The notes under the pieces were generated by a model. That model did no database searches. It worked only from the letters and a program-made list of their open reading frames with translations, and was not told the origin of the DNA. Positions 22,091 to 54,578 of a stretch of 56,791 bases of DNA are shown piece after piece. Positions within the stretch are counted from its first letter, which is position 1; each line of letters starts with the position of its first letter. Location: sequence record PQ437329.1; one strand, written 5' to 3'. The position numbers and the translations under genes are program-made. Source of the stretch: Acinetobacter phage HD01.

Positions 22091-24271
22091 TTAGTCGCTA
22101 TAGTAGCCAATACCCTTTAGCACGTTGTAAGTTTCGTTAATGTACCATTCTTTATCCACATTTTTAGGAAACTCTTGCGGTAATTCCATTAAAGGAACAG
22201 CACCCTCAGAGCGGGGAACTTTGTTACCATTCTTAGCATAAACAATTTCACCAGTAACGTCCTTCCCATAATACCAACGTATTGCCTTTCCTAAGTAGTC
22301 GTTACGCCCAGGCGGACACATTTGCAAAGCGTACTCGTAAGCACGTTCAAGGCTTGCATGGGTGTTAGGTGCCCAAGAGTCGTGACGGTAGTTACCCCCT
22401 GAAACTTCGCTGAACCCCATAATAGACAAAAGTTCTTCTTTTGAGCTGTGCTCGGGAACTAACCTATCCCAAGACTTAACAGCTCCACCATTAACGGAAC
22501 GCACGTTTAAGAATTTGCGTATATCTTGGCATTCGTTAATTGTTTCATGAACAGGTTTATTTTCCAATAACAGTTTACGAATAGCTTCTACACAAATTTC
22601 ATTAGATGGGTTTACCTGCAAACTGGTATTTGCTAAAGCCCCTTTTGTTTTTAACGGTTCTTTAGGATCAGGTCGATTTAACCATATACCGTCCTTTTGC
22701 TCTTTCTTAACAGCTATATAACTGTTAACGTCACGGGAATATAAAGCAAGGTATTCGGTATCTTCTGTTTCAAAGTTTGTAACCTGCTCCCACCATTTAA
22801 CAATCTTATTAAGGGTTTCTTCCATGTGGTCAGGGCACTTAATAACAATCCCGTCCGTGTTTGCACTAACCACACTAATTCCAGCAAGCTCAATTTGCTC
22901 AATAAGCATTAGCAGATTTAACTGACCGCTAATGGTTACCTGAATTAATAAGTCAGGGGAGTACAAAATAGAATATTTAGAACCAAGTTTACCAAACGAA
23001 CCGTTAATGACAATCTTGAGTGAGTTAGCAACTTTTTTATTCCCTGCACGCTTAGCGGTTAAGCGTCGTTGAACAATAGAGTTATACACACTAAGGAAGT
23101 TAGTTCCTAAATGTTTAGGGTAAAGACCCTGATTAAGGATAATAAATGGGTAGTAAGAAGTCACATCACGGTCAATAAGTTTAACCCCACCGCCTGCAAC
23201 ATGCCCGGCAGCAGACTCGGTACTATGTAGGCCGCCAATACCCATCTTGTAGACGCTGTTACCAATGCGTATTTTAAGACTTTTAAGTTCGGCAGGCATA
23301 CCAACAGCACCGCTATCCCCTACAACAAAGTTAGCTTTACGAACAATATCTAGAACGCTATTCATTAAAGGTGTTTGAAAGCGCATGTAAGCAGGAGGAT
23401 AATACTTGTAAGCAGTACCAATAGCAATTTCAGGCCTTTGTGGACGTGTACCAGTAATCTTTTCAATTTCATGTGCAATAACTGCTTCCGCAATTTGTGC
23501 ATCGGACTTACTTCGTAAGTCAATACCGTATTCTTCCGTCATTTCGGTGCGGAGCGTTAATTCGGTTTTCAAAGACTCATATAGCTCAACTGTTTGCTCT
23601 AAATCGTTTACACAGTAATAGCGTGTAATAGCAACTTGCTCGGGGCTTAACACCGTATCCGGAACAAACGGTAAATCCTGCGTCCGTTTAGTGTGCATAC
23701 GCGCACCATAAATTTTTAGCGAGCACATGCTAGGAGCTACTTCAATCAAGTCAATGTGGTTAAGCCGTTTCAACTTCTTAGCGTTATAGTCTTTAAATAA
23801 ATCTTTAGAGCGCACATTATATTGAATAATTTTATCGCTTGCTTCTTTAAGCTGAGCACAACTTAGTCCATGGATTGCAAGGGTAGCCATTGGAATATCG
23901 TAGCTGTTAGAGTTAAAACCAACAACTAGCATATTCTCCATAATCCAACGAAGTTTTTGAGTATTTAAAAAAGAGTTATTATCCTTTTCTAAATAAAAAA
24001 CTTTACCAGTTATTTGACTTTTAAATGCTATGAGGAAATAATTTACATAGCACTCAATATCAAAGATTACAGGGTGTCTTTTAACAGCGCATTCTATAAT
24101 CTCTTGGTCTGTCATTAAGGGTACATTAAACGCCAACGACTCTTCTAAATAAGGTAAATAGTCTGGGAGTAACCAAGTAGGTTCTGGCGGTTCACGTTTT
24201 ACTTTTTCAACTTTAACAGACTTTTCAGCGGGCTTATCTTCCCAAAATAAACCAAGTGCATCCGCTCTCAT
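22091..24271 (-). CDS. DNA polymerase, family B
   Basis: 726 aa. Exo I-like VIFDIECY, Pol-B motif A DVTSYYPFII (DxxSLYPS) and motif C SANTDGIVI (DTD). Confidence 0.7.
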   Translation of the reverse strand: MRADALGLFWEDKPAEKSVKVEKVKREPPEPTWLLPDYLPYLEESLAFNVPLMTDQEIIECAVKRHPVIFDIECYVNYFLIAFKSQITGKVFYLEKDNNSFLNTQKLRWIMENMLVVGFNSNSYDIPMATLAIHGLSCAQLKEASDKIIQYNVRSKDLFKDYNAKKLKRLNHIDLIEVAPSMCSLKIYGARMHTKRTQDLPFVPDTVLSPEQVAITRYYCVNDLEQTVELYESLKTELTLRTEMTEEYGIDLRSKSDAQIAEAVIAHEIEKITGTRPQRPEIAIGTAYKYYPPAYMRFQTPLMNSVLDIVRKANFVVGDSGAVGMPAELKSLKIRIGNSVYKMGIGGLHSTESAAGHVAGGGVKLIDRDVTSYYPFIILNQGLYPKHLGTNFLSVYNSIVQRRLTAKRAGNKKVANSLKIVINGSFGKLGSKYSILYSPDLLIQVTISGQLNLLMLIEQIELAGISVVSANTDGIVIKCPDHMEETLNKIVKWWEQVTNFETEDTEYLALYSRDVNSYIAVKKEQKDGIWLNRPDPKEPLKTKGALANTSLQVNPSNEICVEAIRKLLLENKPVHETINECQDIRKFLNVRSVNGGAVKSWDRLVPEHSSKEELLSIMGFSEVSGGNYRHDSWAPNTHASLERAYEYALQMCPPGRNDYLGKAIRWYYGKDVTGEIVYAKNGNKVPRSEGAVPLMELPQEFPKNVDKEWYINETYNVLKGIGYYSD

Positions 24272-25227
24272 AACTTCATACCTATAATAGCGCCACGTAA
24301 GGATTCACCAAAAAATAAACACGGTGCAGGGTATAAGCTCCAGTCCATAGAGGTTACCGTTCCTTTTAAACAATTAAGCATATCTACTTGATAAATGCCT
24401 TGCGCATTTAAACCCTGCACTTCGTAGTTCGCACCTTCTTCGTTATCTGTTTGACTGGTTGTAATAACGTCACCGTTAATATAAATACGACCAGTTTTAT
24501 CGGTGAAAGGTTTTAGATAAGTTAAAGCAGTGAAAACCCTTTCGTCCATTGGAACTGGGTTAGATGGTTTATCTAAAATTTTACCTATCGGGGGCCAGTC
24601 TGTACTAAATAACTGTGAGCGCACCCAACGTCCATCGCTATAATGAAAAGTGATTGAGTCTTTAGCAATTTGGACTTGTAACGGTGCTTCTTTAATGCGC
24701 AGAAGCTCTTTAACGCAAGGAGCAGGGATATTAACTTCAAAAGGTACTGCAACACCTAACCAGTATTCCACAGCGATGACGTTGTTGGTTGCGTATGCGC
24801 TGCAACCTTTCAAAAGAATACCGTTAGTCCAAGGTCTACTTGCATCGTCCCCAACAAAGTTCAGCAAAACTGTGAAAGCTTTTAAAAGCAGCTCCCCATT
24901 AAAGTCCTGTACAAAATCCCCTTCAGGTAAAACATGAGCGGTTTCTTCGGTAATACATTCAATAAAACTTTTAAACGTACCGCTCTGAATTTTTAACTTT
25001 CCAGCAGGGGTCATGGACATTGCAATAGTATCTTCACACAAGCTAATCGCTTTAACTAATTGCGCGGCTTTTGGTTTACAGTTAATATCAAACGGAATAG
25101 GCGAGCTAAGTGCGAGCATCCCGTTATAAGAGCGAACAACACCATCTTCAATGACAAAGTGTGTCATAGCAGGCAGGAAGTCTTTTTTAGCCACAGCACC
25201 TTGCACAAACTTCAATTCTTTAAGCAT
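24268..25227 (-). CDS. sliding clamp (DnaN/beta-clamp-like) candidate
   Basis: Start at 25227 with RBS AAAGGGGATAATA. N-terminus LKFVQGAVAKKDFLPAMTHFVIEDGVVRSYNGMLALSS resembles beta-clamp N-termini. Coupled to the Pol B gene (ATGA). Confidence 0.4.
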   Translation of the reverse strand: MLKELKFVQGAVAKKDFLPAMTHFVIEDGVVRSYNGMLALSSPIPFDINCKPKAAQLVKAISLCEDTIAMSMTPAGKLKIQSGTFKSFIECITEETAHVLPEGDFVQDFNGELLLKAFTVLLNFVGDDASRPWTNGILLKGCSAYATNNVIAVEYWLGVAVPFEVNIPAPCVKELLRIKEAPLQVQIAKDSITFHYSDGRWVRSQLFSTDWPPIGKILDKPSNPVPMDERVFTALTYLKPFTDKTGRIYINGDVITTSQTDNEEGANYEVQGLNAQGIYQVDMLNCLKGTVTSMDWSLYPAPCLFFGESLRGAIIGMKL

Positions 25228-25603
25228 TATTATCCCCTTTAAACTTCTTATACATTTTAGCATAACGCTCATAAAGCTGTAAGAAGATGCTCTCCACTGA
25301 GTAAGCATGTAACTCGGTGTCATCCCCGAAGCCAAAGTGGTCTTTAATAAAGTCCCAAGCGTGACAAGCTTCGTGGACTAACGTATGGGTTACTGTAATT
25401 GGCTCAACTTCATACATTCCAGGAAACACAATTACAATTGCATCCGTTTCACGTGTTGTATGTGTAACGTGGCAACACTTTGCAGCAGCGTTCCCCATAT
25501 CAGGAATAGTGTAACCTTTAAGGTACTTAATTTCATCCACCTCTTGCTGGCTTTCAACTAGGTAGATTGGGAGGGATGGTAACTTTGGTTTAATTGCTTT
25601 CAT
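25220..25603 (-). CDS. small HExxH zinc-metallopeptidase-like protein
   Basis: 127 aa with LVHEACHAWDF (HExxH). Overlaps the dpdA stop and the clamp start. Confidence 0.4.
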   Translation of the reverse strand: MKAIKPKLPSLPIYLVESQQEVDEIKYLKGYTIPDMGNAAAKCCHVTHTTRETDAIVIVFPGMYEVEPITVTHTLVHEACHAWDFIKDHFGFGDDTELHAYSVESIFLQLYERYAKMYKKFKGDNNA

Positions 25604-26523
25604 TAAAATAATTCCTGAGCACGCGCTTTAAATTCTTGGTCGTGACTTGCGTTTATCATGTGGTTAATTGTGCAGTAACCCCAAATATTATAGGCAGCAC
25701 GCGATTCATATACTGTACTTAGACGCTCGTAAGTGAACCCCATATCTTCAAGCTCTTTAAATAAAAAGTCTTGTTCAATTGGAGTTAAGTTACAAAGGTG
25801 TTGACCTGCATCGTGACGGGATGGGGACTTGTCCGATACACGTAAAGGCCCATGCTTTGGGTGTACAGCAGAACCAAAGGCAGCAGCTTGAATCCAAGAA
25901 GAGGAGTCACAGCTATACCAAGGATAGTCAGCCATTAAAGGCACAGACGTTAAACCAAATCCATGAACTTTAATCTTAGCGTTTCCGCTACCGTCAACCA
26001 AGTATCTATCCCAAATACGGTCAAGCCAAATACGGAGCTTTTGACTCGACTTCCCTACCATACCCCCAATGGTAATATATTCATAGTTTTGGATATACCA
26101 TTCAAGGTATTTTTCGTCTTCCCCAAAGTGAAAGCAGGGTAAAGGCTTAGCCCCACGCTGTTCCATTTCTAACTGGTTGCGCCATGTTTGCAAAGGGTCA
26201 CCAATACCATCCAACACAGAAGCCATCATTACACCGTCTTCGTGTCTAATAATGTCACGGTTGCGGATAATATAAGCGCAATAGTCCTCAATATTAATTG
26301 TTGCACCTAACGTCCAAGCAGAGAACGCACCCGAATCCAGGAATACGGTTGCGTTATCTCGACGCATATCGTCAACATATTTTTGCTTCAATACATAATG
26401 GTAAGATTCAAGAATGTGTGGTGTTTTAGCACAAATATCTTTTTCAATGTCGGTTAATTTTTCATAACGTGTTTGCCCGGGCATATAACCGTTCGTATAA
26501 AGAGCTGCAATAAACAGATTCAT
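25603..26523 (-). CDS. dpdA: DpdA, DNA-guanine transglycosylase (TGT-like) for 7-deazaguanine insertion into DNA
   Basis: 306 aa with TGT-family FLDSGAFS (cf. TDSGGFQ). Last gene of the que operon. Confidence 0.65.
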   Translation of the reverse strand: MNLFIAALYTNGYMPGQTRYEKLTDIEKDICAKTPHILESYHYVLKQKYVDDMRRDNATVFLDSGAFSAWTLGATINIEDYCAYIIRNRDIIRHEDGVMMASVLDGIGDPLQTWRNQLEMEQRGAKPLPCFHFGEDEKYLEWYIQNYEYITIGGMVGKSSQKLRIWLDRIWDRYLVDGSGNAKIKVHGFGLTSVPLMADYPWYSCDSSSWIQAAAFGSAVHPKHGPLRVSDKSPSRHDAGQHLCNLTPIEQDFLFKELEDMGFTYERLSTVYESRAAYNIWGYCTINHMINASHDQEFKARAQELF

Positions 26524-26577: not shown

Positions 26578-27159
26578 TCAGGTTGCTTGCTGCATAAATT
26601 CAGCGCGTGTCTCAGGTTGCTCTTTAATTACACCGCGAAGAGCAGTTGTTACAGTATGGTGTCCCTGCTGACAAATACCTCGCGACTCCATACACATGTG
26701 ACGAGCTTTAATAACCACACCAACGCCAAGAGGTTGCAGGTGTTCAACCAGTGCGTCAGCAATTTGCGAAGTTAAACGCTCTTGAACTTGTAAACGGCGA
26801 GCAAACGCATCCGCTAAGCGTGATAGCTTGCTGAGCCCTACAATTTTACCGTTCGGAATATAAGCAATGGTTGCAGTACCAAAAATGTCAGCTAAATGGT
26901 GTTCACACTTGCTGTAAATTGGAATGTCTTTAACAATTACCATTTGATCGTAATTGTCAGCACCGTCTTCAAAGACTTTTAACAGTGCTGCAATATCCAC
27001 GTTATAACCGCTACACCAGTGCTTCCATGCTTTAGCTACACGGTGCGGAGTCTCTTTTAAGCCTTCACGTTCAGTTTCCCCAACAAAGCCAAGAATAATG
27101 CGAATAGCAGGTTCAATATTCATTTCTTCGTAAGTTGGTGCGTTTGTTTGAGCGTTCAT
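26578..27159 (-). CDS. folE: GTP cyclohydrolase I
   Basis: 193 aa with the KCEHHL signature and the usual C-terminal conserved region. Confidence 0.8.
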   Translation of the reverse strand: MNAQTNAPTYEEMNIEPAIRIILGFVGETEREGLKETPHRVAKAWKHWCSGYNVDIAALLKVFEDGADNYDQMVIVKDIPIYSKCEHHLADIFGTATIAYIPNGKIVGLSKLSRLADAFARRLQVQERLTSQIADALVEHLQPLGVGVVIKARHMCMESRGICQQGHHTVTTALRGVIKEQPETRAEFMQQAT

Positions 27160-27611
27160 TAATTAGTACCTGTATAAATTGCGCTGTTTGCGCCATGTTC
27201 AAAAACTTCTACGGATTCAACTTTTACGTTGGTTGTTAGTTTAGCACTTTTAATCCAGTTTTGTGCAAAACCATACGCAATTTCTGCAAATTTTTCGCAA
27301 CCTACATTGTCAACAATAACTAGGTCTAAAATACCTGCATCACGCATTTCACGGAACTTGTCCAATTGTGGGTCGTCTGCTGCAACAACTGTCTTATGAT
27401 CAAAGTGTTCCATAAGCGTATTCTTTAAGCTTTTAAGTCCACCAAAATCAACAACCCAGTTTCGATCGTCCAACTCTTCAGCAACAAAGGTAAATTTAAA
27501 ACCAATCGCGTATCCGTGCAATTTTGAGCAATGCGAATGCACCGCTCGCCATTGACGGAAAGCGCAACTAATCCCAACTTCATGTCCGTAAGTTTTAGTT
27601 GACTTGTACAT
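27159..27611 (-). CDS. queD: 6-carboxy-5,6,7,8-tetrahydropterin synthase QueD
   Basis: 150 aa with CSKLHGY (Cx3HGH/Y) and a PTPS-like fold signature. Confidence 0.7.
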   Translation of the reverse strand: MYKSTKTYGHEVGISCAFRQWRAVHSHCSKLHGYAIGFKFTFVAEELDDRNWVVDFGGLKSLKNTLMEHFDHKTVVAADDPQLDKFREMRDAGILDLVIVDNVGCEKFAEIAYGFAQNWIKSAKLTTNVKVESVEVFEHGANSAIYTGTN

Positions 27612-28426
27612 TATTCATCTGTCCCATTGTAAGCGTCATAATTTGAAGTTTCAGGGTAATCCATTAAACCTTCTTTAACTGCACGTAATACAAGCGGATC
27701 GGGTTTACCTGCATCCAAGAAACCTTGAGCACGTAATACGTTAGCATGGTTCATGTCCGTTGGAGGATATTTACCGTCATATGAAGTGTGGCTATAAGCT
27801 AAAGCATCCCAACAAGTCCAAGGGCAAGGACCGCCTTCATGCGCTAGTTTGGTGTCAATGTGTAGTTTATAAGCAAGGTCTACAGTCTCAGCTTTGTCTA
27901 ACCACATTAACGGAGTAACAATATTAATCCAATTATCGTCGCGGTGATCGTGTCCTAAAGCTGTATTAATATACATTTCGGTGGCACGAATAAACACTTG
28001 TCGACAATCGTCATAATTAGCGTTATCCATTTGACATACCCCAGTGATAAGGTCGCAGTCACCAAGTGCTTCAGCGCGGTTAGCTGCTACCGTTAAGAAA
28101 AGTGCATTGCGCATAGGCACAAAGGTCTTTTCACGGTTGCTACCAACTTCAGCAGACATAGACTCAAAGTCTTGGTATTTGTCTAACTCGTTGCTGCTAG
28201 TAAGCGGTGAAACACTTTTTAAACAGTTTGGAATTTGAACAAATTCATGCGACGTAACGCCTGCCATTTCTGCAACCTTACGAGCAGCTTCTAGCTCAAT
28301 AATATGACGCTGACCGTAATCGAAAGTAATAGCGTGAATTTCTTTGTAACCTTGTTGTTGAGCCCAAAATAGACAGGTTGTTGAATCCTGACCCCCTGAT
28401 AAAATAACTAAAGCTTTTTGACGCAT
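27611..28426 (-). CDS. queC: 7-cyano-7-deazaguanine synthase QueC, with C-terminal extension
   Basis: PP-loop SGGQDST near the N-terminus. 271 aa, about 40 aa longer than typical QueC, with an atypical Cys arrangement (CPWTCW). No glutamine amidotransferase domain. Confidence 0.75.
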   Translation of the reverse strand: MRQKALVILSGGQDSTTCLFWAQQQGYKEIHAITFDYGQRHIIELEAARKVAEMAGVTSHEFVQIPNCLKSVSPLTSSNELDKYQDFESMSAEVGSNREKTFVPMRNALFLTVAANRAEALGDCDLITGVCQMDNANYDDCRQVFIRATEMYINTALGHDHRDDNWINIVTPLMWLDKAETVDLAYKLHIDTKLAHEGGPCPWTCWDALAYSHTSYDGKYPPTDMNHANVLRAQGFLDAGKPDPLVLRAVKEGLMDYPETSNYDAYNGTDE

Positions 28427-28431
28427 TGGTA

Positions 28432-29172
28432 TTACTCCACGTTAATGATTTTGTGTGTTTGCAGTTGCAAAGTGTACCCATGTTTAAGACATGATGCAAC
28501 ACATGCTTCCATATTTTGTGCATTTAGTTTAGCACATTTGTCGTCAAGCGGTTGTAAGTAGATTGGAACTGTTACTCTACTTAAATTGGGACGGAACAGG
28601 ATTGGTTTTGCTGTGTGGTCAAGTGCTGTTTTAGGAAGTCCATCGTGTGCATCCAAATCGCTGGCACCGCCAACGTATTTAAAAGCGCAAGCGTGTTCTT
28701 GGATTGTTTGGTGTACATTACCAGTCTTAGGACTGCAAACAATGTAAATTCCAAAACGACCGTGAGGGTTTAAAGTAATTATCTTCTGAATGCGGTTAGC
28801 AGGTTCGGGAATTGGCAAAGATCCGTTAGTTTCAATCTGCACATAATAACCGTTATCAACAAGAATATGCAGGAATTGGAACAGGTTACTCTGACGTAAA
28901 GGTTCGCCACCAGTAACCACAATAAGTCCGCCTTTTTGCAAGTTACGCACAGTGTCAACAATATCTACGTACTTCATTAGCTTACGCCCGTCCGTGTATT
29001 CGGTGTCACACTTTGGGCATTGTAGGTTGCAACCTGCTAAACGTATAAAGACGCAAGGTGTTCCAGTAAAAGGACCTTCACCTTGAATAGTTTTAAAAAT
29101 ACTATGTACGTCTAAACTGCGAACCTTATTTGTTAATGCAATACGCTTTTCTGGCTTTTGGTTGTTTAACAT
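28432..29172 (-). CDS. queE: 7-carboxy-7-deazaguanine synthase QueE (radical SAM)
   Basis: 246 aa with CNLQCPKC (Cx3Cx2C). Confidence 0.75.
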   Translation of the reverse strand: MLNNQKPEKRIALTNKVRSLDVHSIFKTIQGEGPFTGTPCVFIRLAGCNLQCPKCDTEYTDGRKLMKYVDIVDTVRNLQKGGLIVVTGGEPLRQSNLFQFLHILVDNGYYVQIETNGSLPIPEPANRIQKIITLNPHGRFGIYIVCSPKTGNVHQTIQEHACAFKYVGGASDLDAHDGLPKTALDHTAKPILFRPNLSRVTVPIYLQPLDDKCAKLNAQNMEACVASCLKHGYTLQLQTHKIINVE

Positions 29173-41369: not shown

Positions 41370-43862
41370 TTAGACGTCTTCTGGTAGTCTTAGAATTGCG
41401 TAAGCTTTACCATTGAACTTGAATGTTGTTCCACCTTTAGCATCGTTGTATTGACGCAAGTAACCTGAGTCAACTAAAGATTGCAAAGCAGTATCCAAAG
41501 CCACGCGAGAACCTGCTCGGTGTCTTGTAAACGCACTAACGCCCTGTATTTTAGAGTTCAAGTACCAACGCGGAACGACACCTGCTTCGTGCATTTCTTT
41601 TTTAAGGCGGTTGTTTAAGATGTGGTTAGTTGCACAATTATTCTTATTTCTAAGGTAATCGGCACAAATAGCCATAATTTTCTTCTCGCGAGTTGCGTCA
41701 CCTGTACCGATGTCACCCATAGAAATTCGAGCTTGCATCATCTTAATGTCGTTGTCTACAAGAGCTTTTGCCCATAAGACTTGTTCTTCATTAATAACAG
41801 GCTGCACCCAGTTATCCGCACATGCAAGCAAAGCAGATAAACGCATAACCTTTAACGATGCGCGGTTCCACATTTGTCGGATGCCTTCGTCTGTTGTACT
41901 GTTAATCTTGCTATCGCATAAGTTTTCGTATTCAAACATAAGTCTAGCAGCTTCAGCAGTACGACCAACAGCAACGTTCTGCCCTATGCCAATTAAATGC
42001 TTAACATGCTGAGCCAAGTCACCAATAGCGTCACCCAGTGCCTTAGTGGGCTCTAGAATAGGGTTTTGGTTTAATGGTGGACGGTCACCAGTATATTCAA
42101 CAATAGTAAAACGCGAAAGGAAACCATCTTCCATCATTGACTCGGTTAAACTGTCAAACAGTGTTCGCGGTGTAGTTTCACCAATCATACTGAACGCAAC
42201 CCCACTCACCGAAGCAATGTTGTTATCTTTGTTGGAATAGGTAATACCCCCAACAATGGATTGAGGTCCGGACTTTTGGTACAGGTTAGTCATAACGGTA
42301 CGCAATGTGGAATATCCGGAAGTATCGCGGTCATCCTGGCTCATTGCTTTAAGCTTGCGACCCCATTCGCCCGCAACGTTCACAACGCTAGGGGAAGCAA
42401 CAATCTTTTTAATTAAAGCAGGGCCGGAAGCATAGTCGTTAAAGTCAACAAAGTCCATAATACTTGGACAACGTGTTAAAGCTGCTTTACAAAGAGCAGA
42501 AATACCACTGTGCATGGCTTCTTTACCAACTGCAGAACGTGCAACCAAAATAATATAGACGTTCAAACCCGACTGAGGTATTGAGTACGCTTTACCGCAT
42601 AGTCCAGCTAGTAAACCAAGAGCAGCAACAATAGCAATTTCCCGAACAGGTCGGGGAGCACTATTATAAATAAAGGAAGCAATAGCACCACACATTCCAG
42701 GCGGCCAGGCGATGCCACCTTCGTGTTCTGGTGCAGGTGCAGTCACAGGGCCTGCAAGGGTAGCAACCGCTGAAGCAGGTTTAGGCATTTCATAGTCACC
42801 TACTCCGTCAATTGCGTGTAAAGCTGTAGGCATTGGGTTATTACCGTCGCTGAAGCGAACGGTGTTTCCGTTTCCCATTTCAATTTCTTGTAAGCGCGTT
42901 TGCTGAGCTAATTGTGCTGCTTCAAGCAATGCACTAGCGTCCACTTTATCTTCACGGTCTTGACGTCCGCGGATAATTCGCAACGTATAGTTTAAGTAAC
43001 GGTCATCCTTAACAGCTTTTTCACGTTTACCCAGTGCAGTCATACGGAACAAGCGTTTGCACTGTGCATTTGATTTACTGTAGAAAGTAAACATAGACAT
43101 TAAAGCAAGGTCTGCTTCGCTTTGACTTGGGAAACCAAACTGCTGCCAGCGACCCATGCAAAGCTCATTGAACTTTTGTCCGTTACCTGCACTCATAGCG
43201 CGGTCAATTACAACTTCATCGGGTTCATCTTCTTCAAGTTCTACAAGTTGGAAGCGTTCTGCTGCACCAGTGCCACGCATCTGCGAAACCATGTTGTCCA
43301 ATAGTGCTTGAGCTTCAACAATTGGTTTAGCTTCCAGGCGGTGACCTGTACAAATAATATAACGTTCTTGACTATATACTTCCACATGGTCGCGACGACA
43401 CCCAACACCAATATTCCCGCGAACCCAAATATGCAACCCTTTACCCGAACGCGATGTTTCCGTATAACTGTTAAACGCTTGCACCATTGCCCAATAACGA
43501 TCATATTGGTCTGGTGTAGTCCATTGGGATGCGTCTTTACAGTTAGTTGAGTCTTTAACGTCAAGGTCAATACAGGTAAATGGATCGTCCGCGCTAAGCA
43601 TATATCCAATACTATAACCCTGCTGCTTTATTTCAATACCATGTTTGTCTACATGTGTGGTAATAAGTTCGCGGTTATTCCAAGCAAACCAACAAGCGTC
43701 ATTGAATGTCATCCATGTTGCAGGGTCTGTTGACTTTGCACCAATAATCTTTCCGTTAATCATGCTAAGTGGCGCTTTATTAGCACCACTTACAACCCAT
43801 TGAGGACGCTCTTTTAACTCGTCCGGAATATTGCCCCAAGCAACACCAGTATTTTGAATCAT
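41370..43862 (-). CDS. DNA primase-polymerase / helicase
   Basis: 830 aa. N-terminal bifunctional prim-pol features (SRSGKGLHIW). Central P-loop-like ARSAVGKE and C-terminal DUF3987/D5-like region. Confidence 0.55.
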   Translation of the reverse strand: MIQNTGVAWGNIPDELKERPQWVVSGANKAPLSMINGKIIGAKSTDPATWMTFNDACWFAWNNRELITTHVDKHGIEIKQQGYSIGYMLSADDPFTCIDLDVKDSTNCKDASQWTTPDQYDRYWAMVQAFNSYTETSRSGKGLHIWVRGNIGVGCRRDHVEVYSQERYIICTGHRLEAKPIVEAQALLDNMVSQMRGTGAAERFQLVELEEDEPDEVVIDRAMSAGNGQKFNELCMGRWQQFGFPSQSEADLALMSMFTFYSKSNAQCKRLFRMTALGKREKAVKDDRYLNYTLRIIRGRQDREDKVDASALLEAAQLAQQTRLQEIEMGNGNTVRFSDGNNPMPTALHAIDGVGDYEMPKPASAVATLAGPVTAPAPEHEGGIAWPPGMCGAIASFIYNSAPRPVREIAIVAALGLLAGLCGKAYSIPQSGLNVYIILVARSAVGKEAMHSGISALCKAALTRCPSIMDFVDFNDYASGPALIKKIVASPSVVNVAGEWGRKLKAMSQDDRDTSGYSTLRTVMTNLYQKSGPQSIVGGITYSNKDNNIASVSGVAFSMIGETTPRTLFDSLTESMMEDGFLSRFTIVEYTGDRPPLNQNPILEPTKALGDAIGDLAQHVKHLIGIGQNVAVGRTAEAARLMFEYENLCDSKINSTTDEGIRQMWNRASLKVMRLSALLACADNWVQPVINEEQVLWAKALVDNDIKMMQARISMGDIGTGDATREKKIMAICADYLRNKNNCATNHILNNRLKKEMHEAGVVPRWYLNSKIQGVSAFTRHRAGSRVALDTALQSLVDSGYLRQYNDAKGGTTFKFNGKAYAILRLPEDV

Positions 43863-45399: not shown

Positions 45400-45639
45400 A
45401 CTAAACCCTTACAAAACGTAATTTAAAAGTTAAAACGCTAGTAGATTAACCTGATACAGCTAAACATGAATTTTCACGTTGTAAATGTAACAAAGTTTTT
45501 AATACAGCGAAAAATACAGTAAAAACTATAACACAAATAAAAATATTTAAAATTGCATCAGAGCATTTAGATGACTAGATACAAGAATGATAGTGTTTTA
45601 CGGTAGTTTCCCTAGTATATAAAAATAATTACCCTACCC

Positions 45640-45668
45640 CATATAAAAAAAAAATTTTTTTTATATAC
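45640..45668. promoter_or_regulatory. near-perfect A/T palindrome in divergent control region
   Basis: CCCCATATAAAAAAAAAATTTTTTTTATATAC, flanked by repeated TATATA(A/C)CC motifs. Confidence 0.4.
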
Positions 45669-45843
45669 TACCTAAATTATTTTGCCCTTTATATAAGGAC
45701 TGTAAAATACCGTAATAAACCAATAATTCCGAAGTACCCCTATTGAAAAATATTTTTTTTTCATATACCCCCCCTTTAATTGGCTTTATATCCCTTATAC
45801 CAGTTCGGTTATAAGTATATAAGTAAAACCAATATACAAATAT

Positions 45844-45872
45844 TTGCATCTATATCTAATTTTGAGTTATAT
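45844..45872 (+). promoter_or_regulatory. sigma70-like promoter for plus-strand small-gene block
   Basis: TTGCAT, 17-nt spacer, TTATAT. About 28 nt upstream of the first ATG (45900), which has RBS GGAGA. Confidence 0.45.
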
Positions 45873-45899
45873 TGTGCTTATATTCATTGGAGAACAAAT

Positions 45900-46160
45900 A
45901 TGAAAGCTAAATTCAACTTTAATACCCATCAGCTAGCAGCAGGTTCGCGCATTGTGAACGCTCACGGACGCACGCTGTACACTGTGGTTAAAGCTCTCAC
46001 TCCTGCATGGGAAACACCTGACAGCAATTATGAAAACGATTGCTTATGGGTGCAGGTAATTGACAACGAAGGTCAAGAGTGGGCTCAGCCTGTACAGTGG
46101 TTTAATGCTGTTATTGCTGTTAACGATGGGATGCACGTTATGCAGGGAGAAGCAGCATGA
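45900..46160 (+). CDS. hypothetical protein
   Basis: ATG at 45900 after GGAGAACAAAT; 86 aa. Confidence 0.45.
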   Translation: MKAKFNFNTHQLAAGSRIVNAHGRTLYTVVKALTPAWETPDSNYENDCLWVQVIDNEGQEWAQPVQWFNAVIAVNDGMHVMQGEAA

Positions 46161-46565: not shown

Positions 46566-46781
46566 ATGAAAATTGTTTTAGAACTACCAGTAAACGCCAT
46601 CAGCGAAGAACGTATTGAAGACTTACTTATGGATCAAGACTATGTAACTGTAGACAGCACTTATGAAGTTAAAGGTGATAAACTTGTAGCAACCTTTGAA
46701 CCACACTGGGAAGATACTGAGAATGTGGATTGGTTCATGTTTGTGCAGTATATAACAGATGTCTTATTACCTTACTTATAA
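46566..46781 (+). CDS. hypothetical acidic protein
   Basis: 71 aa, RBS AAGGAAGA. Confidence 0.4.
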   Translation: MKIVLELPVNAISEERIEDLLMDQDYVTVDSTYEVKGDKLVATFEPHWEDTENVDWFMFVQYITDVLLPYL

Positions 46782-46797
46782 TTTAAACGTCTAGTCC

Positions 46798-46825
46798 AAC
46801 CTCCTGCAAAGGAGGTTTTTTATTT
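46798..46825 (+). terminator. rho-independent terminator
   Basis: AACCTCC-TGCAAA-GGAGGTT followed by TTTTTTATTT. Confidence 0.7.
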
Positions 46826-46833
46826 GTGCTATA

Positions 46834-47395
46834 CTGCGAACCAATAGCTAGGTAGTAAGCGAAAGCCCAGGCCCTAGACTCCCCTGATAGTTGGGCAGGA
46901 GACCACAAAATAAACTATCCAATGCAACGGTGTAATTACCTTAGCCTTAAAGTGTAAAGCGTAAACAATGCGAAGGTGGCTTAATCCACTGAAGCCAAAG
47001 CAATGGTTGAACTGCACCGTTAGCAGGGAACCCAAAGCCACAATCAGGGTAACGTCGCTCTAACTTGCTTATTGTGCCGTTACTTTACAGGTAGCTTCCT
47101 TGAAGCTGGACATAAGTGGGAATCACAGTAATAAAAGCCTATGCTGCCCTGCTACCTGTAGACACCTTATTGAGTGTTCACCATATCCTTCAGGGTTTCT
47201 TGAGTGTCCGTCTAGTAAGGTGTATTAGACCAGTGCAGCGATCGCATTGTGCATAATGTGGTCAGGAAGATGCACCTTCCAAGCACTGGTCAACCTCGTA
47301 CACCTTAGCCAGTGAGGAAGTAGCCCACAGGGTAGCCCATTCTATCTTGTGCCTCATTGGACTAAGGTGTGCGCTGTAGTTCACCTTTTTATAGC
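46834..47395 (+). ncRNA. ORF-free structured region, candidate ncRNA or regulatory element
   Basis: About 560 nt with no credible ORF in a genome otherwise >90% coding, bracketed by two terminators. Contains nested inverted repeats (TACAGGTAGC...GCTACCTGTA around AGCTTC-CTTG-GAAGCT) and a recurring CACCTT motif. Confidence 0.3.
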
Positions 47396-47430
47396 CCTGT
47401 ACCGTTCCCCGACGTACAGGGTTCTTTTTC
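47396..47430 (+). terminator. rho-independent terminator / attenuator
   Basis: CCCTGTAC-CGTTCCCCGAC-GTACAGGG followed by TTCTTTTT, 20 nt before the next start. Confidence 0.6.
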
Positions 47431-47450
47431 ACAATAGCAAAGAGGTCTAT

Positions 47451-47723
47451 ATGACTGCTCAAAAGGTTTCACCTGAACAAATTGCTGCACTAATGAAGCG
47501 CGTAACTGTCACAACAGAGTACAGTGAAGCACCAACACCACACGTGACAGCTAAAGCCTGGCTAGATGGTTCTTTCCACTTAGCAACGGCGATTTCCAAA
47601 GCTGTAAACCCTGCTGAATTTCGCCGTGACTTAGGTGAAGAGTATTCTACTAAAGAAGCTTTAGATAAAGCAGAAGATAAACTTTGGGAGTTGGAAGGTT
47701 ACGTGTTGTTCCAACAGAAGTAA
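47451..47723 (+). CDS. hypothetical protein
   Basis: ATG at 47451 after AGAGG; 90 aa. Confidence 0.4.
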   Translation: MTAQKVSPEQIAALMKRVTVTTEYSEAPTPHVTAKAWLDGSFHLATAISKAVNPAEFRRDLGEEYSTKEALDKAEDKLWELEGYVLFQQK

Positions 47724-52416: not shown

Positions 52417-52443
52417 AAGACCGTTCATACGGTCTTTTTATTT
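52417..52443 (+). terminator. rho-independent terminator
   Basis: AAGACCG-TTCATA-CGGTCTT followed by TTTTATTT. Confidence 0.65.
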
Positions 52444-52453
52444 AGGTGGAACT

Positions 52454-52546
52454 ATGGCTAAGTCAACAATCTACGGTTTAACATATTTAGCGATTTTATT
52501 TATTGCTTCAATTTTCTGTTTAATTAAAGAAGGTGTTTTATTATGA
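52454..52546 (+). CDS. 30-aa hydrophobic peptide (unlisted micro-ORF)
   Basis: MAKSTIYGLTYLAILFIASIFCLIKEGVLL. Stop overlaps the next start (ATGA at 52543). Confidence 0.35.
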   Translation: MAKSTIYGLTYLAILFIASIFCLIKEGVLL

Positions 52547-54484: not shown

Positions 54485-54543
54485 TCTAACTTCAAGTCTG
54501 AAAAATCGGTTATTATATTTACAGCATCCAACTAAGACAACAG

Positions 54544-54564
54544 GGAGCAAAAGCTCCCTTTTTA
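54544..54564 (+). terminator. rho-independent terminator
   Basis: GGGAGC-AAAA-GCTCCC followed by TTTTT. Confidence 0.7.
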
Positions 54565-54578
54565 ATGAGGGTTTAAAA

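Follow-up and report, generated by a model that had tools for sequence, protein, structure and literature searches.

What does the genome of Acinetobacter phage HD01 carry between positions 46782 and 47450, where no credible gene can be read? The first-pass annotation of this DNA (the window, meaning the whole stretch analysed; PQ437329.1, 56,791 nt) had described 46834-47395 as free of credible open reading frames (ORFs), highly structured and bracketed by two strong terminators, and had named a structured non-coding RNA or a long 5′ leader as leading candidates. The ORFs of at least 30 aa in 46782-47450 are small on both strands (41, 55 and 66 aa on the minus strand; 31, 42 and 46 aa on the plus strand), and none is credible. 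The five that lie inside the ORF-free region have no PHROG match, and the minus-strand 66-aa frame crosses a terminator hairpin, as had been noted, the hairpin being that of the second terminator. The flanking gene at 47451 matches phrog_322 (E 1e-18), a family of unknown function. Elsewhere in the rightward gene arm, two further apparent gaps turn out to hold small plus-strand ORFs; therefore, the AT-rich divergent promoter region apart, 46782-47450 is the only large ORF-free stretch in that arm.

The composition and folding of the stretch agree with the earlier description. Its GC content is 47.4%, compared to 41.5% for the window, 38% for the flanks and 26% for the AT-rich promoter region from which it had been said to differ. 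The plus strand has a minimum free energy (MFE) of −210.9 kcal/mol, compared to −174.9 ± 6.9 kcal/mol for shuffled sequences (z = −5.19; none of 20 shuffles folds as well), while the minus strand reaches only z = −1.72, so that the strong fold belongs to the plus strand. In a constrained MFE fold, dense structure extends across the entire 590 nt. Based on the strand-specific fold, the raised GC content, the absence of any protein-family ORF, the syntenic homologues and a covarying pseudoknot, 46840-47430 on the plus strand is a predicted self-contained transcription unit, a structured non-coding RNA gene of about 590 nt (Table 1).

This putative gene has a predicted promoter and terminator of its own, and both bracketing terminators were recovered (46798-46825 and 47395-47429). 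The hairpin arms of T1, AACCTCCT and AGGAGGTT, occupy 46798-46817, and its T-run, which reaches 46825, runs into the RNA promoter; NP1-type homologues have a similar layout in which a terminator overlaps the promoter. The predicted transcription start is at about 46840-46843. Across the family, 18 of 24 distinct lineages have a sigma-70-like promoter 40-130 nt 5′ of the pseudoknot, compared to 4.4 expected from shuffles. At the other end, the stem of T2 is formed by CCCTGTAC (47395-47402) and GTACAGGG (47414-47421), followed by TTCTTTTT up to 47429; the consensus terminator scan missed T2 solely because its loop is longer than 8 nt. The next start codon lies 21 nt past T2 with no space for a promoter in between, and consequently any transcript that reads through T2 carries the RNA as its leader. 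Two further strong terminators, T3 (52417-52443) and T4 (54542-54566), are each followed directly by a Shine-Dalgarno sequence and ATG, also without a promoter. The order is thus promoter (46827-35), RNA, T2 (47395), T3 (52417) and T4 (54542), each terminator abutting the next ribosome binding site, and the RNA promoter is the last recognisable promoter ahead of all three. We infer the terminator function of T2, T3 and T4 from these sequence features.

Table 1. Predicted features of the RNA gene and its borders in the window
Feature	Position	Strand	Basis or remark
Putative terminator T1, belonging to the early three-gene unit upstream	46798..46825	+	8-bp stem, 4-nt loop, T-run (terminator scan; inverted repeat I10)
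Predicted extended −10 promoter, TGcTATACT	46827..46835	+	Read directly from the sequence
5′ domain: helix P1, CUAGG (46848-46852) with CCUAG (46873-46877), around a GC-GAAA-GC mini-hairpin (46859-46866)	46848..46877	+	
H-type pseudoknot core, invariant	46877..46919	+	Model R1 match 46873-46929, 55.3 bits, E 3e-9
Linker CAAUGCAAC	46920..46928	+	GCAAC/GAAC-type motif that recurs after the pseudoknot family-wide
Multi-hairpin insertion closed by AACGGUGUA/UGCACCGUU	46926..47021	+	Constrained MFE fold; inverted repeat I3; window-specific
Hairpin GGUAACG/CGUUACU	47048..47084	+	Constrained MFE fold only; window-specific
Module M: closing stem (47086-47095 with 47151-47160), single-stranded run, inner hairpin	47085..47161	+	Alignment with Pseudomonas-phage-type homologues
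Hairpin closed by ACACCUUAUU/AGUAAGGUGU	47162..47223	+	Constrained MFE fold; I11; window-specific
Domain of two inner hairpins within a closing stem, GACCAGUGC/GCACUGGUC	47228..47291	+	Constrained MFE fold; I8; window-specific
Long hairpin closed by GUACACCUUAG/CUAAGGUGUGC	47298..47372	+	Constrained MFE fold; I1; window-specific
Putative terminator T2, RNA 3′ end	47395..47429	+	8-bp stem, 11-nt loop, UUCUUUUU (inverted repeat I13)
Ribosome binding site AAGAGG and ATG of the first downstream gene	47440..47453	+	phrog_322 match; ATG at 47451

We found no known RNA family in the window. A scan with Rfam 15 at the gathering score gave no match anywhere in it, including to the GOLLD, ROOL, HEARO, preQ1-class, EAR, C4, STAXI, group I and II intron, RNase P, 6S and tmRNA models, and the sub-threshold matches within 46700-47550 are at chance level (Cobalamin, for instance, scores 12 bits where 31.5 is its gathering score). 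Rfam models matched none of the RNA in 16 homologous loci, and lowering the threshold to E ≤ 10 for the L097 and L109 copies returned nothing relevant. ARAGORN found no tRNA or tmRNA gene in the window, which accords with the earlier remark that no tRNA-like T-loop is present. A group I or II intron was also rejected, as the flanking genes are complete and unrelated and no intron model matched. Literature searches on the core sequence, on riboswitches or non-coding RNAs of 7-deazaguanine phages and on large phage RNAs did not find the element; a catalogue of 10,006 candidate viral RNAs is not sequence-searchable. Rfam 15 has no model of the RNA family, which these searches indicate to be previously undescribed.

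Homologues become visible only by synteny and then by way of GC-rich copies; in a direct blastn search, the window RNA matched none of 50,697 phage records. Using synteny and exact-pattern scans, we found about 35 distinct homologues in metagenomic phages, GenBank phages and P4-like integrative elements. The core-pattern scan returned stretches from viruses (13), genomes (6) and metagenomes (28), nearly all of which have the complete pseudoknot. The RNA is carried by 19 GenBank phage records (among them NP1, PaMx25, JG012/054, PAJD-1, DoCa3 and VPv62) and, in a divergent form, additionally by MMDA13 and R7M. The cultured carriers infect Pseudomonas, Xanthomonas, Variovorax, Sphingomonas and Alteromonas, and the RNA is annotated in none of them; several GenBank records instead have hypothetical proteins annotated across the homologous stretch. 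We looked for a conserved protein gene at this position in relatives, and found that they keep the RNA fold and no ORF.

The 45-nt core shared by these sequences is an H-type pseudoknot, every pair of which can form in the window. Its first stem, S1, pairs C46879-U46880-C46881 with G46899-A46900-G46901 and C46882-84 with G46893-95 around the bulge C46896-A46897-G46898; its second, S2, pairs GAUAGU (46886-46891) with ACUAUC (46914-46919); and loop L3 is ACCACAAAAUA. The window has all the features of the family core: S1 combines CWC/GWG with CCC/GGG, a 3-nt bulge interrupting it; the loop forms 5-7 bp with bases about 13 nt past S1; and L3 follows the pattern ACSACA..AAU. The unpaired bases, the CAG bulge and the ACSACA..AAU of L3, are invariant. 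In an alignment of 26 sequences, 95.3% of the paired cells hold standard pairs and in 9 of the 13 pairs both partners have changed. The covariation score of 0.438 compares to 0.117 for shuffles, is reached by none of 500 shuffles and collapses when the pairing partners are slid. All six pairs of S2 covary, although the search pattern had left S2 unconstrained, and pair 9:29 of S1 is A:U in 14 sequences, U:A in 12 and mismatched in none. These compensatory changes in related phages show that the predicted pseudoknot is conserved as an RNA fold.

Helix P1 closes the 5′ domain and stops directly before the core GAC, in the window as in the family. Read by eye, its position is kept while its sequence varies: CCCA.GG/CC.UGGG in the NP1 type, CCCAUG/CAUGGG in L095, CCGGUA/UACCGG in R7M and CUUGU/ACAAG in L134, with outer three pairs of CCC:GGG, CUA:UAG, CCG:CGG or CUU:AAG according to lineage. 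On this by-eye reading, P1 appears to covary across the family; an ungapped 7-mer complement search and an MAFFT alignment with RNAalifold were both non-discriminating.

The sequence 3′ of the pseudoknot is modular. Within the first 60 nt, across 20 lineages, GAAC occurs 22 times compared to 6.3 expected, and TGAA 16 times compared to 3.9 (z about 6.7). In module M, about 25 consecutive bases are kept in the alignment with Pseudomonas-phage-type homologues; the single-stranded run UUCCUUGAAGCUGGAC-NNAAG-NGGGA and the inner hairpin loop AAAGCC are conserved. Its closing stem is TACAGGTAGC/GCTACCTGTA in the window and CACTCGGG/CCCGAGTG in the homologues, wholly different and still complementary, and its inner stem is CAGUA/UGCUG compared to CGUCG/UGACG; these exchanges show that the predicted module M covaries. 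Beyond four NP1-type contigs, IMG/VR held no further variants of it. This comparison also revises the nested inverted repeats reported here at first pass. The outer repeat stands, being 100% complementary, but the enclosed hairpin has only AGCTT/AAGCT, and the proposed AGCTTC...GAAGCT hairpin is unconserved, its letters corresponding to the conserved single-stranded motif in the homologues. The recurring motifs that had been pointed out, ACACCTTA and TAAGGTGT, each occur twice, as arms of the hairpins at 47162-47223 and 47298-47372. For the insertion at 46926-47021 we found no close relative to compare. Beyond the pseudoknot, P1 and module M, the parts are exchangeable hairpin modules.

Comparing the homologues gives a predicted family layout of a promoter, P1 around a variable 5′ domain, the invariant pseudoknot, hairpin modules with GAAC/CAAC-rich linkers and a terminal hairpin before the next gene, over a modular length of 250-600 nt. 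The window RNA is a divergent and enlarged member. A terminal hairpin lies 15-35 nt before the next ATG in the NP1-type, L123, L137, L124 and R7M homologues. Several others, L100 and L102 among them, have a last hairpin with no U-tract behind it. The NP1, L102, L123 and L128 types have kissing loops (UGUGGG/CCCACA) and a terminal loop, CUGGUGC, that is conserved. L135 has two pseudoknot cores in tandem, and its RNA ends in a strong terminator of its own, followed by non-coding DNA and tRNA genes with no ORF; the L134 copy adjoins tRNA genes as well.

We asked which genes accompany the RNA. In the window, the primase/helicase gene (41370-43862, minus strand) lies 3 kb away, and the RNA sits in the early region beside a Prim-Pol/DUF3987 primase-helicase in L059-L063, L078, L079, L084, L089, PaMx25 and MMDA13 as well; in R7M, it sits deeper in the arm. 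Among 36 primase-related loci, syntenic homologues were found beside the primase/helicase in 9, with weak matches in 4 more and no detectable copy in 23. Two integrative elements, L109 and L110, carry the pseudoknot in the leader between an integrase gene and an HTH_17 gene that is followed by helicase/primase genes, and in L110 the likely S2 partner adjoins the start codon. The replication module (DUF3987, Prim-Pol, NrS1-1 HBD) is the only kind of gene common to the carrier phages and these two elements. ORF clustering of RNA-positive against RNA-negative loci, in which spurious GC-rich ORFs and kinship dominated, gave no conserved partner gene beyond the primase/helicase shared with the integrative elements. 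The gene downstream of the RNA varies among close homologues; an automated next-ORF search was noisy in GC-rich loci. No copy of the RNA occurs in 58 loci that encode relatives of the 47451 gene, and no relatives of the upstream gene were found. The RNA is missing from E. coli phage 9g, in which a 1-kb unannotated gap resembles an AT- and C-rich control region rather than the RNA. By classification, the NP1 group and R7M belong to Queuovirinae, and MMDA13 carries the 7-deazaguanine (preQ0) pathway (PMC7472734). The carriers of the family are Queuovirinae-type siphophages with 7-deazaguanine-modified DNA, and P4-like integrative elements with the same kind of primase/helicase.

Both of the candidates named at the outset, a structured non-coding RNA and a long 5′ leader, are supported by the covarying fold, the RNA's own promoter and terminator, and the gene that begins 21 nt on. 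The mechanism we favour, which we hold to be a little short of probable, has the RNA work in cis: as leader, it would head the rightward gene arm and promote terminator read-through into it. The nascent pseudoknot domain would stay with its own RNA polymerase, or recruit a factor to it, and that polymerase would then pass T2 and the further promoter-less terminators downstream, a form of processive antitermination as in HK022 put, EAR and conAn2. The RNA is placed as antiterminators of this class are, after a promoter and ahead of several terminators of the same operon. The overlap of T1 with the RNA promoter, together with the way in which T2 to T4 abut the next ribosome binding sites without promoters, suggests a leader, and so does the position of the pseudoknot before the HTH_17 gene in L109 and L110. 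As the downstream gene differs among close homologues, control would act on the operon and not on a single gene. There is precedent in cis-acting antiterminator RNAs of 260-600 nt (conAn2), as well as in put and EAR (PMC8191782, PMC9378689). Several observations count against a leader. The pseudoknot is unlike put or EAR, and no Rfam model matches it. In L135, no ORF follows the terminated RNA, and in L100 and L102, where the U-tract is missing, no antitermination would be required. The 23 primase-related loci and phage 9g without a detectable copy also have to be set against it, leaky terminators alone could account for the expression of downstream genes, and the elaborate, conserved, tertiary-looking features would be more typical of stable trans-acting RNAs.

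Such an RNA is the main rival, possible though doubtful in our judgement. Like GOLLD or ROOL, it would be made early, be released at the terminator or by processing, and bind a host or phage partner or self-assemble, while downstream genes would be expressed by leakage. The insulated order of terminator, promoter, RNA and terminator, the density of the fold throughout 590 nt, the loop sequences conserved in several lineages, a modular size similar to that of other large stable RNAs, the tRNA-adjacent copies and the tandem cores of L135 all point this way, and the GAAC/CAAC linker repeats could form a protein-binding array. However, in the integrative elements the pseudoknot is part of an mRNA leader, and no terminator separates it from the ORF; the 3′ hairpin of several homologues lacks a U-tract; no separate promoter serves the downstream genes; and matches of the RNA to other phage transcripts are only 11-13 nt long, at chance level, with no significant complementarity. 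Alternatively, the pseudoknot could be the aptamer of a riboswitch-like sensor for a small molecule that arises in infection, a 7-deazaguanine intermediate such as preQ0 being the most attractive candidate, and would gate late-arm read-through as well as an alpA-like or replication operon in satellites that detect their helper. The preQ1-I, SAM-II and fluoride aptamers have the same H-type topology, and invariant unpaired bases, tandem cores (as in some riboswitches), the S2 partner beside the L110 start codon and the preQ0 pathway in every characterised carrier phage would all fit. The window itself encodes FolE, QueD, QueC and QueE, but the que genes (26578-29172, minus strand) are about 18 kb away on the other strand and the RNA is not in their 5′ UTR. 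Moreover, no preQ1 or other riboswitch model matches even at E 10, the 75-500 nt between pseudoknot and terminator consist of unrelated modules and do not resemble an expression platform, the pathway occurs in phage 9g without the RNA, and the integrative-element stretches examined contain no que genes. We consider a sensor improbable.

Two further explanations fare worse. The proximity to the primase/helicase gene, always within about 3 kb, and the replication module shared with L109 and L110 would suit a replication origin, a structured single-stranded DNA initiation site or a primer transcript for the Prim-Pol/DUF3987 enzyme, in which the fold would matter in single-stranded DNA or an R-loop. 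The GAAC repeats resemble iterons, and an exact copy of TGTTCACC, which we take to be the P4 iteron, lies at 47175. A P4-type iteron cluster was nevertheless rejected as evidence of an origin: the RNA has one exact and one near match, only 2 in 600 nt and unclustered, although the window as a whole slightly exceeds shuffles (68 matches compared to 48). The element is flanked by promoter and terminator in one fixed orientation, its G-U pairs and A-rich L3 are typical of an RNA pseudoknot, most primase-related loci have no copy, and it is the divergent promoter region at 45400-45900 that is truly AT-rich and bears repeats; an origin is thus a very remote prospect. The idea of a functionless remnant of a protein gene or mobile element, to which the hypothetical proteins annotated over some homologues might lend colour, is scarcely credible: there is no conserved ORF and no PHROG match, modules are swapped and indels are not multiples of three, and compensatory changes keep the helices, so that covariation already contradicts it. 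The locus is syntenic across relatives with no terminal repeats, and this synteny, the absence of flanking repeats and the covariation led us to reject a degenerate mobile element.

Returning to the cis-acting leader, a bolder version, which we regard as unlikely, would make the pseudoknot a new class of elongation switch common to virulent 7-deazaguanine phages and P4-like satellites with the same type of primase/helicase. Alone, or with a helper-phage product bound to it (a protein, or a phage-specific metabolite such as preQ0), the RNA would let host RNA polymerase resist terminators, and satellites would thereby detect helper infection; that P4-like integrative elements contain the core as well hints at cross-talk between satellite and helper at the RNA level. 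To our knowledge, very few large structured phage-encoded RNAs exist in the record, and only three types of RNA-based antiterminator have been described. If our interpretation is correct, a whole phage group has a conserved RNA gene, 250-600 nt long, that has remained unannotated or been misannotated as hypothetical proteins; among its members are Pseudomonas aeruginosa phages under consideration for therapy (NP1, PaMx25, PAJD-1 and others). It would provide a fourth antiterminator type, built on a compact and strongly covarying pseudoknot, that informs the timing of phage genes and could serve as a portable regulatory part.

Comparison with known systems places the RNA among several partial likenesses. 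STAXI motifs are repeated pseudoknots near ssb, topoisomerase and integrase genes, and the family core resembles them as a pseudoknot unit that can occur in tandem, in mobile DNA and near replication or integration genes; it differs in having no Rfam match and in being usually single, inside a long transcript with a promoter and terminator. The P4 CI RNA and the c4 RNA of P1 and P7 are leader-derived stem-loops of about 70-80 nt that pair antisense with sites in the same leader. They share with the family the setting of a structured leader RNA of a P4-type primase/helicase operon, in phage and satellite contexts, whereas the window RNA has neither repeated complementary sites nor a C4-family match. 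Aptamers of the preQ1-I type are alike in their H-type fold with a short L1, an A-rich L3 along S1, invariant unpaired bases, occasional tandems and a link to 7-deazaguanine, but the window core has no covariance-model match, a CAG bulge in S1 and a 13-nt L3, is far from any expression platform and does not precede que or transporter genes. GOLLD and ROOL, which are reported beside tRNA genes, are likewise several hundred nt long, richly structured, modular, phage-encoded and of unknown function. They differ in host (here Proteobacteria) and in core motif, and neither the window nor the 16 homologous loci match them in Rfam; structures of both are available (PMC12286853).

A further likeness is to the RNA antiterminators. 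EAR contains a pseudoknot, and put consists of two stem-loops of about 70 nt, whereas the window core is an H-type pseudoknot with a 3-nt bulge. We found neither sequence nor structural homology to put, EAR or conAn2, and identified no ConAn1-like partner gene; the likeness is one of predicted layout. The conAn2 regions, at 260-600 bp, are in the same size range as the window RNA. HK022 putL/putR, Bacillus EAR and conAn2 of pLS20-type conjugative plasmids act in cis and let polymerase pass several intrinsic terminators, and, like the window RNA, each is a structured RNA that closely follows a promoter where a long operon of a phage or mobile element begins (PMC9378689, PMC8191782).

As the first-pass annotation had proposed, the gap that runs from the 71-aa gene's stop codon (46781) to the 47451 ATG holds no credible ORF; its longest frames reach 55 and 66 aa (minus strand) and 46 aa (plus strand), and five ORFs inside the region have no PHROG match, while the flanking 47451 gene, the first downstream of the RNA, does match a PHROG family. 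The region's GC content, said earlier to be mixed and unlike that of the AT-rich promoter region, is 47.4%, compared to 41.5% for the window and ~38% for the flanking genes. The plus-strand RNA folds at −210.9 kcal/mol, compared to −174.9 ± 6.9 kcal/mol for dinucleotide shuffles (z = −5.2), while the minus strand yields z = −1.7 against shuffles. The remaining apparent gaps of the rightward gene arm are filled by small ORFs. Therefore, the ORF gap, its GC content, the plus-strand fold and the coding content of the other gaps together confirm the observation beyond chance. Both bracketing terminators, predicted from the sequence, are present: T1, before the RNA gene, and T2, at its 3′ end, which a consensus scan overlooked solely because its loop is 11 nt. 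An inverted-repeat search recovered the repeats named earlier, and the fold places the recurring CACCTT and AAGGTGT words in the arms of two hairpins. Across the whole window, Rfam 15 returned 0 families at threshold and only chance-level matches at E ≤ 10, and neither a tRNA nor a tmRNA was detected, in agreement with the earlier reading, which saw no tRNA-like T-loop. Using the region itself as query, blastn against phage records found no match.

This ~57-kb window is the genome of a siphophage. Its structural genes are on the plus strand and are followed by a long replication and nucleotide arm on the minus strand; an arm of small plus-strand genes begins at an AT-rich divergent promoter region (~45400–45900). 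Further genes encode ThyX, a ligase, a helicase and a Prim-Pol/DUF3987 primase-helicase. The window also encodes que-type genes, which mark it as a Queuovirinae-type phage with 7-deazaguanine DNA. Neighboring folE-queD-queC-queE are two genes without a Pfam match (25603–26523 and 24268–25335, both minus strand), one of which is the expected place of the DpdA-like transglycosylase of 7-deazaguanine phages. Among cultured phages, Alteromonas phage R7M is the window's sole nucleotide-level relative.

Positions of features in the window and in two satellite-like integrative elements
Feature	Sequence	Position	Strand	Description
Deazaguanine genes	Window	26578–29172	minus	GTP cyclohydrolase I, QueD, QueC, QueE-like radical-SAM protein
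T1	Window	46798–46817	plus	8-bp hairpin, then T-run
Predicted promoter	Window	46827–46835	plus	Extended −10 TGcTATACT directly after T1, read from sequence
T2	Window	47395–47421	plus	Stem CCCTGTAC/GTACAGGG, then TTCTTTTT
Predicted strong intrinsic terminator	Window	52417–52443		SD and ATG (52455) directly after, without promoter
Predicted strong intrinsic terminator	Window	54542–54566		SD and ATG (54579) directly after, without promoter
Integrative element	L109	3249–6662		P4-type integrase, pseudoknot leader, HTH_17, DUF3987 helicase
Integrative element	L110	261–4842		P4-type integrase, pseudoknot leader, HTH_17, AAA_25 and Prim-Pol

Loci compared with the window bear L numbers below. Those with relatives of the 47451 gene contained no similar RNA sequence, and a search for relatives of the upstream gene returned none. 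Loci fetched via the primase/helicase showed short collinear similarities at the syntenic position in the closest relatives. The GC-rich phages among these loci have the window's layout: a terminator overlapping a promoter (TTGTGC-17-TATAGT), ~370 nt free of ORFs, a U-tract hairpin and then the next gene, which varies among otherwise near-identical loci. Searching with a degenerate pattern built on the best-conserved block yielded 13 viral, 6 genome and 28 metagenome stretches, almost all with the complete motif and amounting to ~35 distinct sequences. A blastn search that started from a GC-rich copy located the RNA in 19 GenBank records, including Pseudomonas phages (NP1, PaMx25, JG012, JG054, PAJD-1, Quinobequin-P09, BL5, TIVP-H6, PIP and others), Xanthomonas phage DoCa3 and Variovorax phage VPv62, where the stretch has no annotation, bears just the label ‘terminator’ or is overlaid by hypothetical proteins. 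The 1–4 hypothetical proteins over the RNA in BL5, JG012, JG054, TIVP-H6, Quinobequin-P09, pPA-3099-2aT.3 and SG_WM_Sew_P3 are probably spurious calls, given the covariation and lack of a conserved frame. In phage R7M, a 410-nt unannotated gap houses a divergent copy with a promoter-like site, helix P1, a pseudoknot and a terminator; an ATG adjoins it. No copy was found in E. coli phage 9g. Its ~1-kb unannotated gap between gp33 and gp34 (L146, NC_024146, 24867–25903) is rich in C and in AT, repeats CTTTATAAAT-like words and had no match to the pseudoknot model; it has the look of a control or origin region, not of this RNA.

Comparison of the homologues identified an H-type pseudoknot as the family's invariant element. 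Stem S1 consists of CWC/GWG and CCC/GGG with a CAG bulge between them on the 3′ side; in S2 (5–7 bp), a 7–8-nt hairpin loop pairs with the segment after the A-rich 13-nt loop L3 (ACSACAUAAU..). In an alignment of 26 distinct sequences, 95.3% of cells are standard pairs and both sides change at 9 of 13 pairs (covariation score is 0.438, compared to 0.117 ± 0.019 for shuffles, and is reached by 0 of 500). All pairing and covariation measures collapse when partners are slid by 1–3 columns. The exact pattern used to collect most of the family fixes much of S1, whose statistics therefore rest on two free positions, while S2, left unconstrained by the pattern, is unbiased and covaries in all six pairs: GAUAG/CUAUC (window), UCCGG/CCGGA, CGCGG/CCGCG, UCACG/CGUGA, CCGUC/GACGG, GCGUGC/GCACGC and CACCGG/CCGGUG. 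At the W:W pair of S1, 14 sequences have A:U and 12 have U:A, without mismatches, and divergent copies add the compensatory variants CCCG/CGGG (R7M) and CUG/CAG (MMDA13 type). The core covariance model matches the window at 46873–46929 (55 bits, E = 3e-9, a rough value from a quick calibration). The region is thus a plus-strand, RNA-level element in which purifying selection maintains this specific pseudoknot. The pseudoknot's 5′ half CCCTGATAGT (46882–46891) is 90% complementary over 10 nt to 47040–47049, 148 nt downstream, and the ACACCTTA/TAAGGTGT hairpins (47162–47169, 47216–47223, 47299–47307, 47363–47370) have arms that are exchangeable in principle; either pairing could produce alternative folds.

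P1, located immediately 5′ of the core, encloses a variable domain and has the outer pairs CCC:GGG, CUA:UAG (window), CCG:CGG (R7M) and CUU:AAG (L134); it was recognized by inspection of the sequences, as automated tests did not discriminate. The module at 47085–47161 is common to the window and the NP1 type (GC-rich Pseudomonas-phage homologues) only, with ~25 consecutive identical bases (UUCCUUGAAGCUGGAC..AAG.GGGA), a retained AAAGCC loop and two helices of wholly different sequence that are yet complementary. The window's remaining RNA (46926–47084 and 47162–47372) is a lineage-specific hairpin chain predicted from fold energy alone; no close relative of its marine lineage was found for comparing these hairpins. 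Modules of other lineages include a hairpin pair with complementary loops (UGUGGG and CCCACA) and a terminal hairpin with a conserved CUGGUGC loop. Linkers 3′ of the pseudoknot are rich in GAAC/CAAC (GAAC 22 versus 6.3 expected, z ~6.7). Two motifs absent from the window recur elsewhere: CACCGUCUAUUCGGGA ... GUUCAAGGCGGACUG in the 5′ domains of lineages L124, L125, L137, L073 and L085 and a conserved internal loop, CAGUGAGCUCC ... GGAUGAAYCUG, in the NP1, L102, L123 and L135 types.

The −10 element lies right behind T1, and the unit order is therefore terminator, promoter, ~590 nt, terminator, and RBS with ATG, the ATG being 21 nt past T2. By this prediction, the RNA would be transcribed from its own promoter, and it is physically the leader of any transcript that continues past T2. 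Of the family's 24 distinct lineages, 18 have a predicted sigma-70-like promoter 40–130 nt upstream of the core, versus 4.4 expected. A terminal hairpin precedes the next SD and ATG by 15–35 nt in the window, NP1-type, L123, L124, L137 and R7M copies; its U-tract is missing in some copies. Genomes of the Dechloromonas and Caballeronia types have the core in the leader between P4-type integrase and HTH_17 genes, the latter AlpA- or excisionase-like. The replication proteins of L109 and L110 have motifs in common with the phage primase/helicase, and both are integrative, satellite-like elements with the phages' kind of replication module. A gammaproteobacterial MAG (L112 1–3000, NCGK01000001.1, Gammaproteobacteria bacterium 28-57-27) carries a type I-E-like CRISPR array of ~49 repeats (CTGTTCCCCGCACACGCGGGGATGAACCG, 61-nt period), whose spacer at ~1054–1085 is identical to the invariant core; the host thus acquired immunity against exactly that segment.

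The earlier candidates, a structured ncRNA or a leader, are supported by the pseudoknot covariation, the predicted promoter-terminator unit and the leader position. The RNA promoter is the final recognizable one of the rightward arm, and T2 abuts the next RBS, leaving no space for another. Such promoter-less terminators abutting RBSs, of which the arm has two more (table), are a landscape typical of processive-antitermination operons; the small ORF starting at 52455 encodes ~30 aa, hydrophobic by eye. RNA-only or RNA-plus-protein antiterminators are located just after the promoter in HK022 put, EAR and the 260–600-bp conAn2 (PMC9378689, PMC8191782). On the strength of this landscape and precedent, we tentatively favor a cis-acting leader: T1 would halt upstream transcription, the RNA promoter would then serve the arm as its last one, and the pseudoknot domain, alone or with a bound factor, would render the transcribing polymerase terminator-resistant. 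The satellite-like elements, in which the core also occupies a leader, agree with this reading.

Its chief competitor is a stable RNA acting in trans, like the large phage-associated GOLLD and ROOL. We hold it to be somewhat less likely; it is favored by the insulation of the unit, the conservation of tertiary-looking loops, growth by modules and the neighboring tRNA genes. The RNA is followed by tRNA genes in two metagenomic contigs: L135 (features at 1108–1226 and 1552–1794) has two tandem cores, its own terminator and then three tRNA genes, and in L134 (features at 214–270, 526–599 and 942–1050) a tRNA gene adjoins the RNA. L134 also has an above-threshold Rfam match to the Rhizobiales sRNA Atu_At1. 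A metabolite sensor, for example for preQ0, is an attractive idea, as 7-deazaguanines are made by every characterized carrier and the fold resembles the preQ1-I type. It is nevertheless improbable, since any expression platform is far away, the RNA has no link to the que genes and phage 9g lacks it. We give very little credence to a role as an origin or in ssDNA. The earlier suggestion of a degenerate mobile element is, like a pseudogene, effectively excluded.

None of the papers searched contains the core sequence, and the only one touching a homologous region called it a non-coding region. The RNA belongs neither to the put/EAR/conAn2 class nor to the large ornate phage RNAs, as all Rfam models failed on the window and its homologues; at most, it resembles them in its working. 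It is a new structured-RNA family of phages, and probably a regulatory one.
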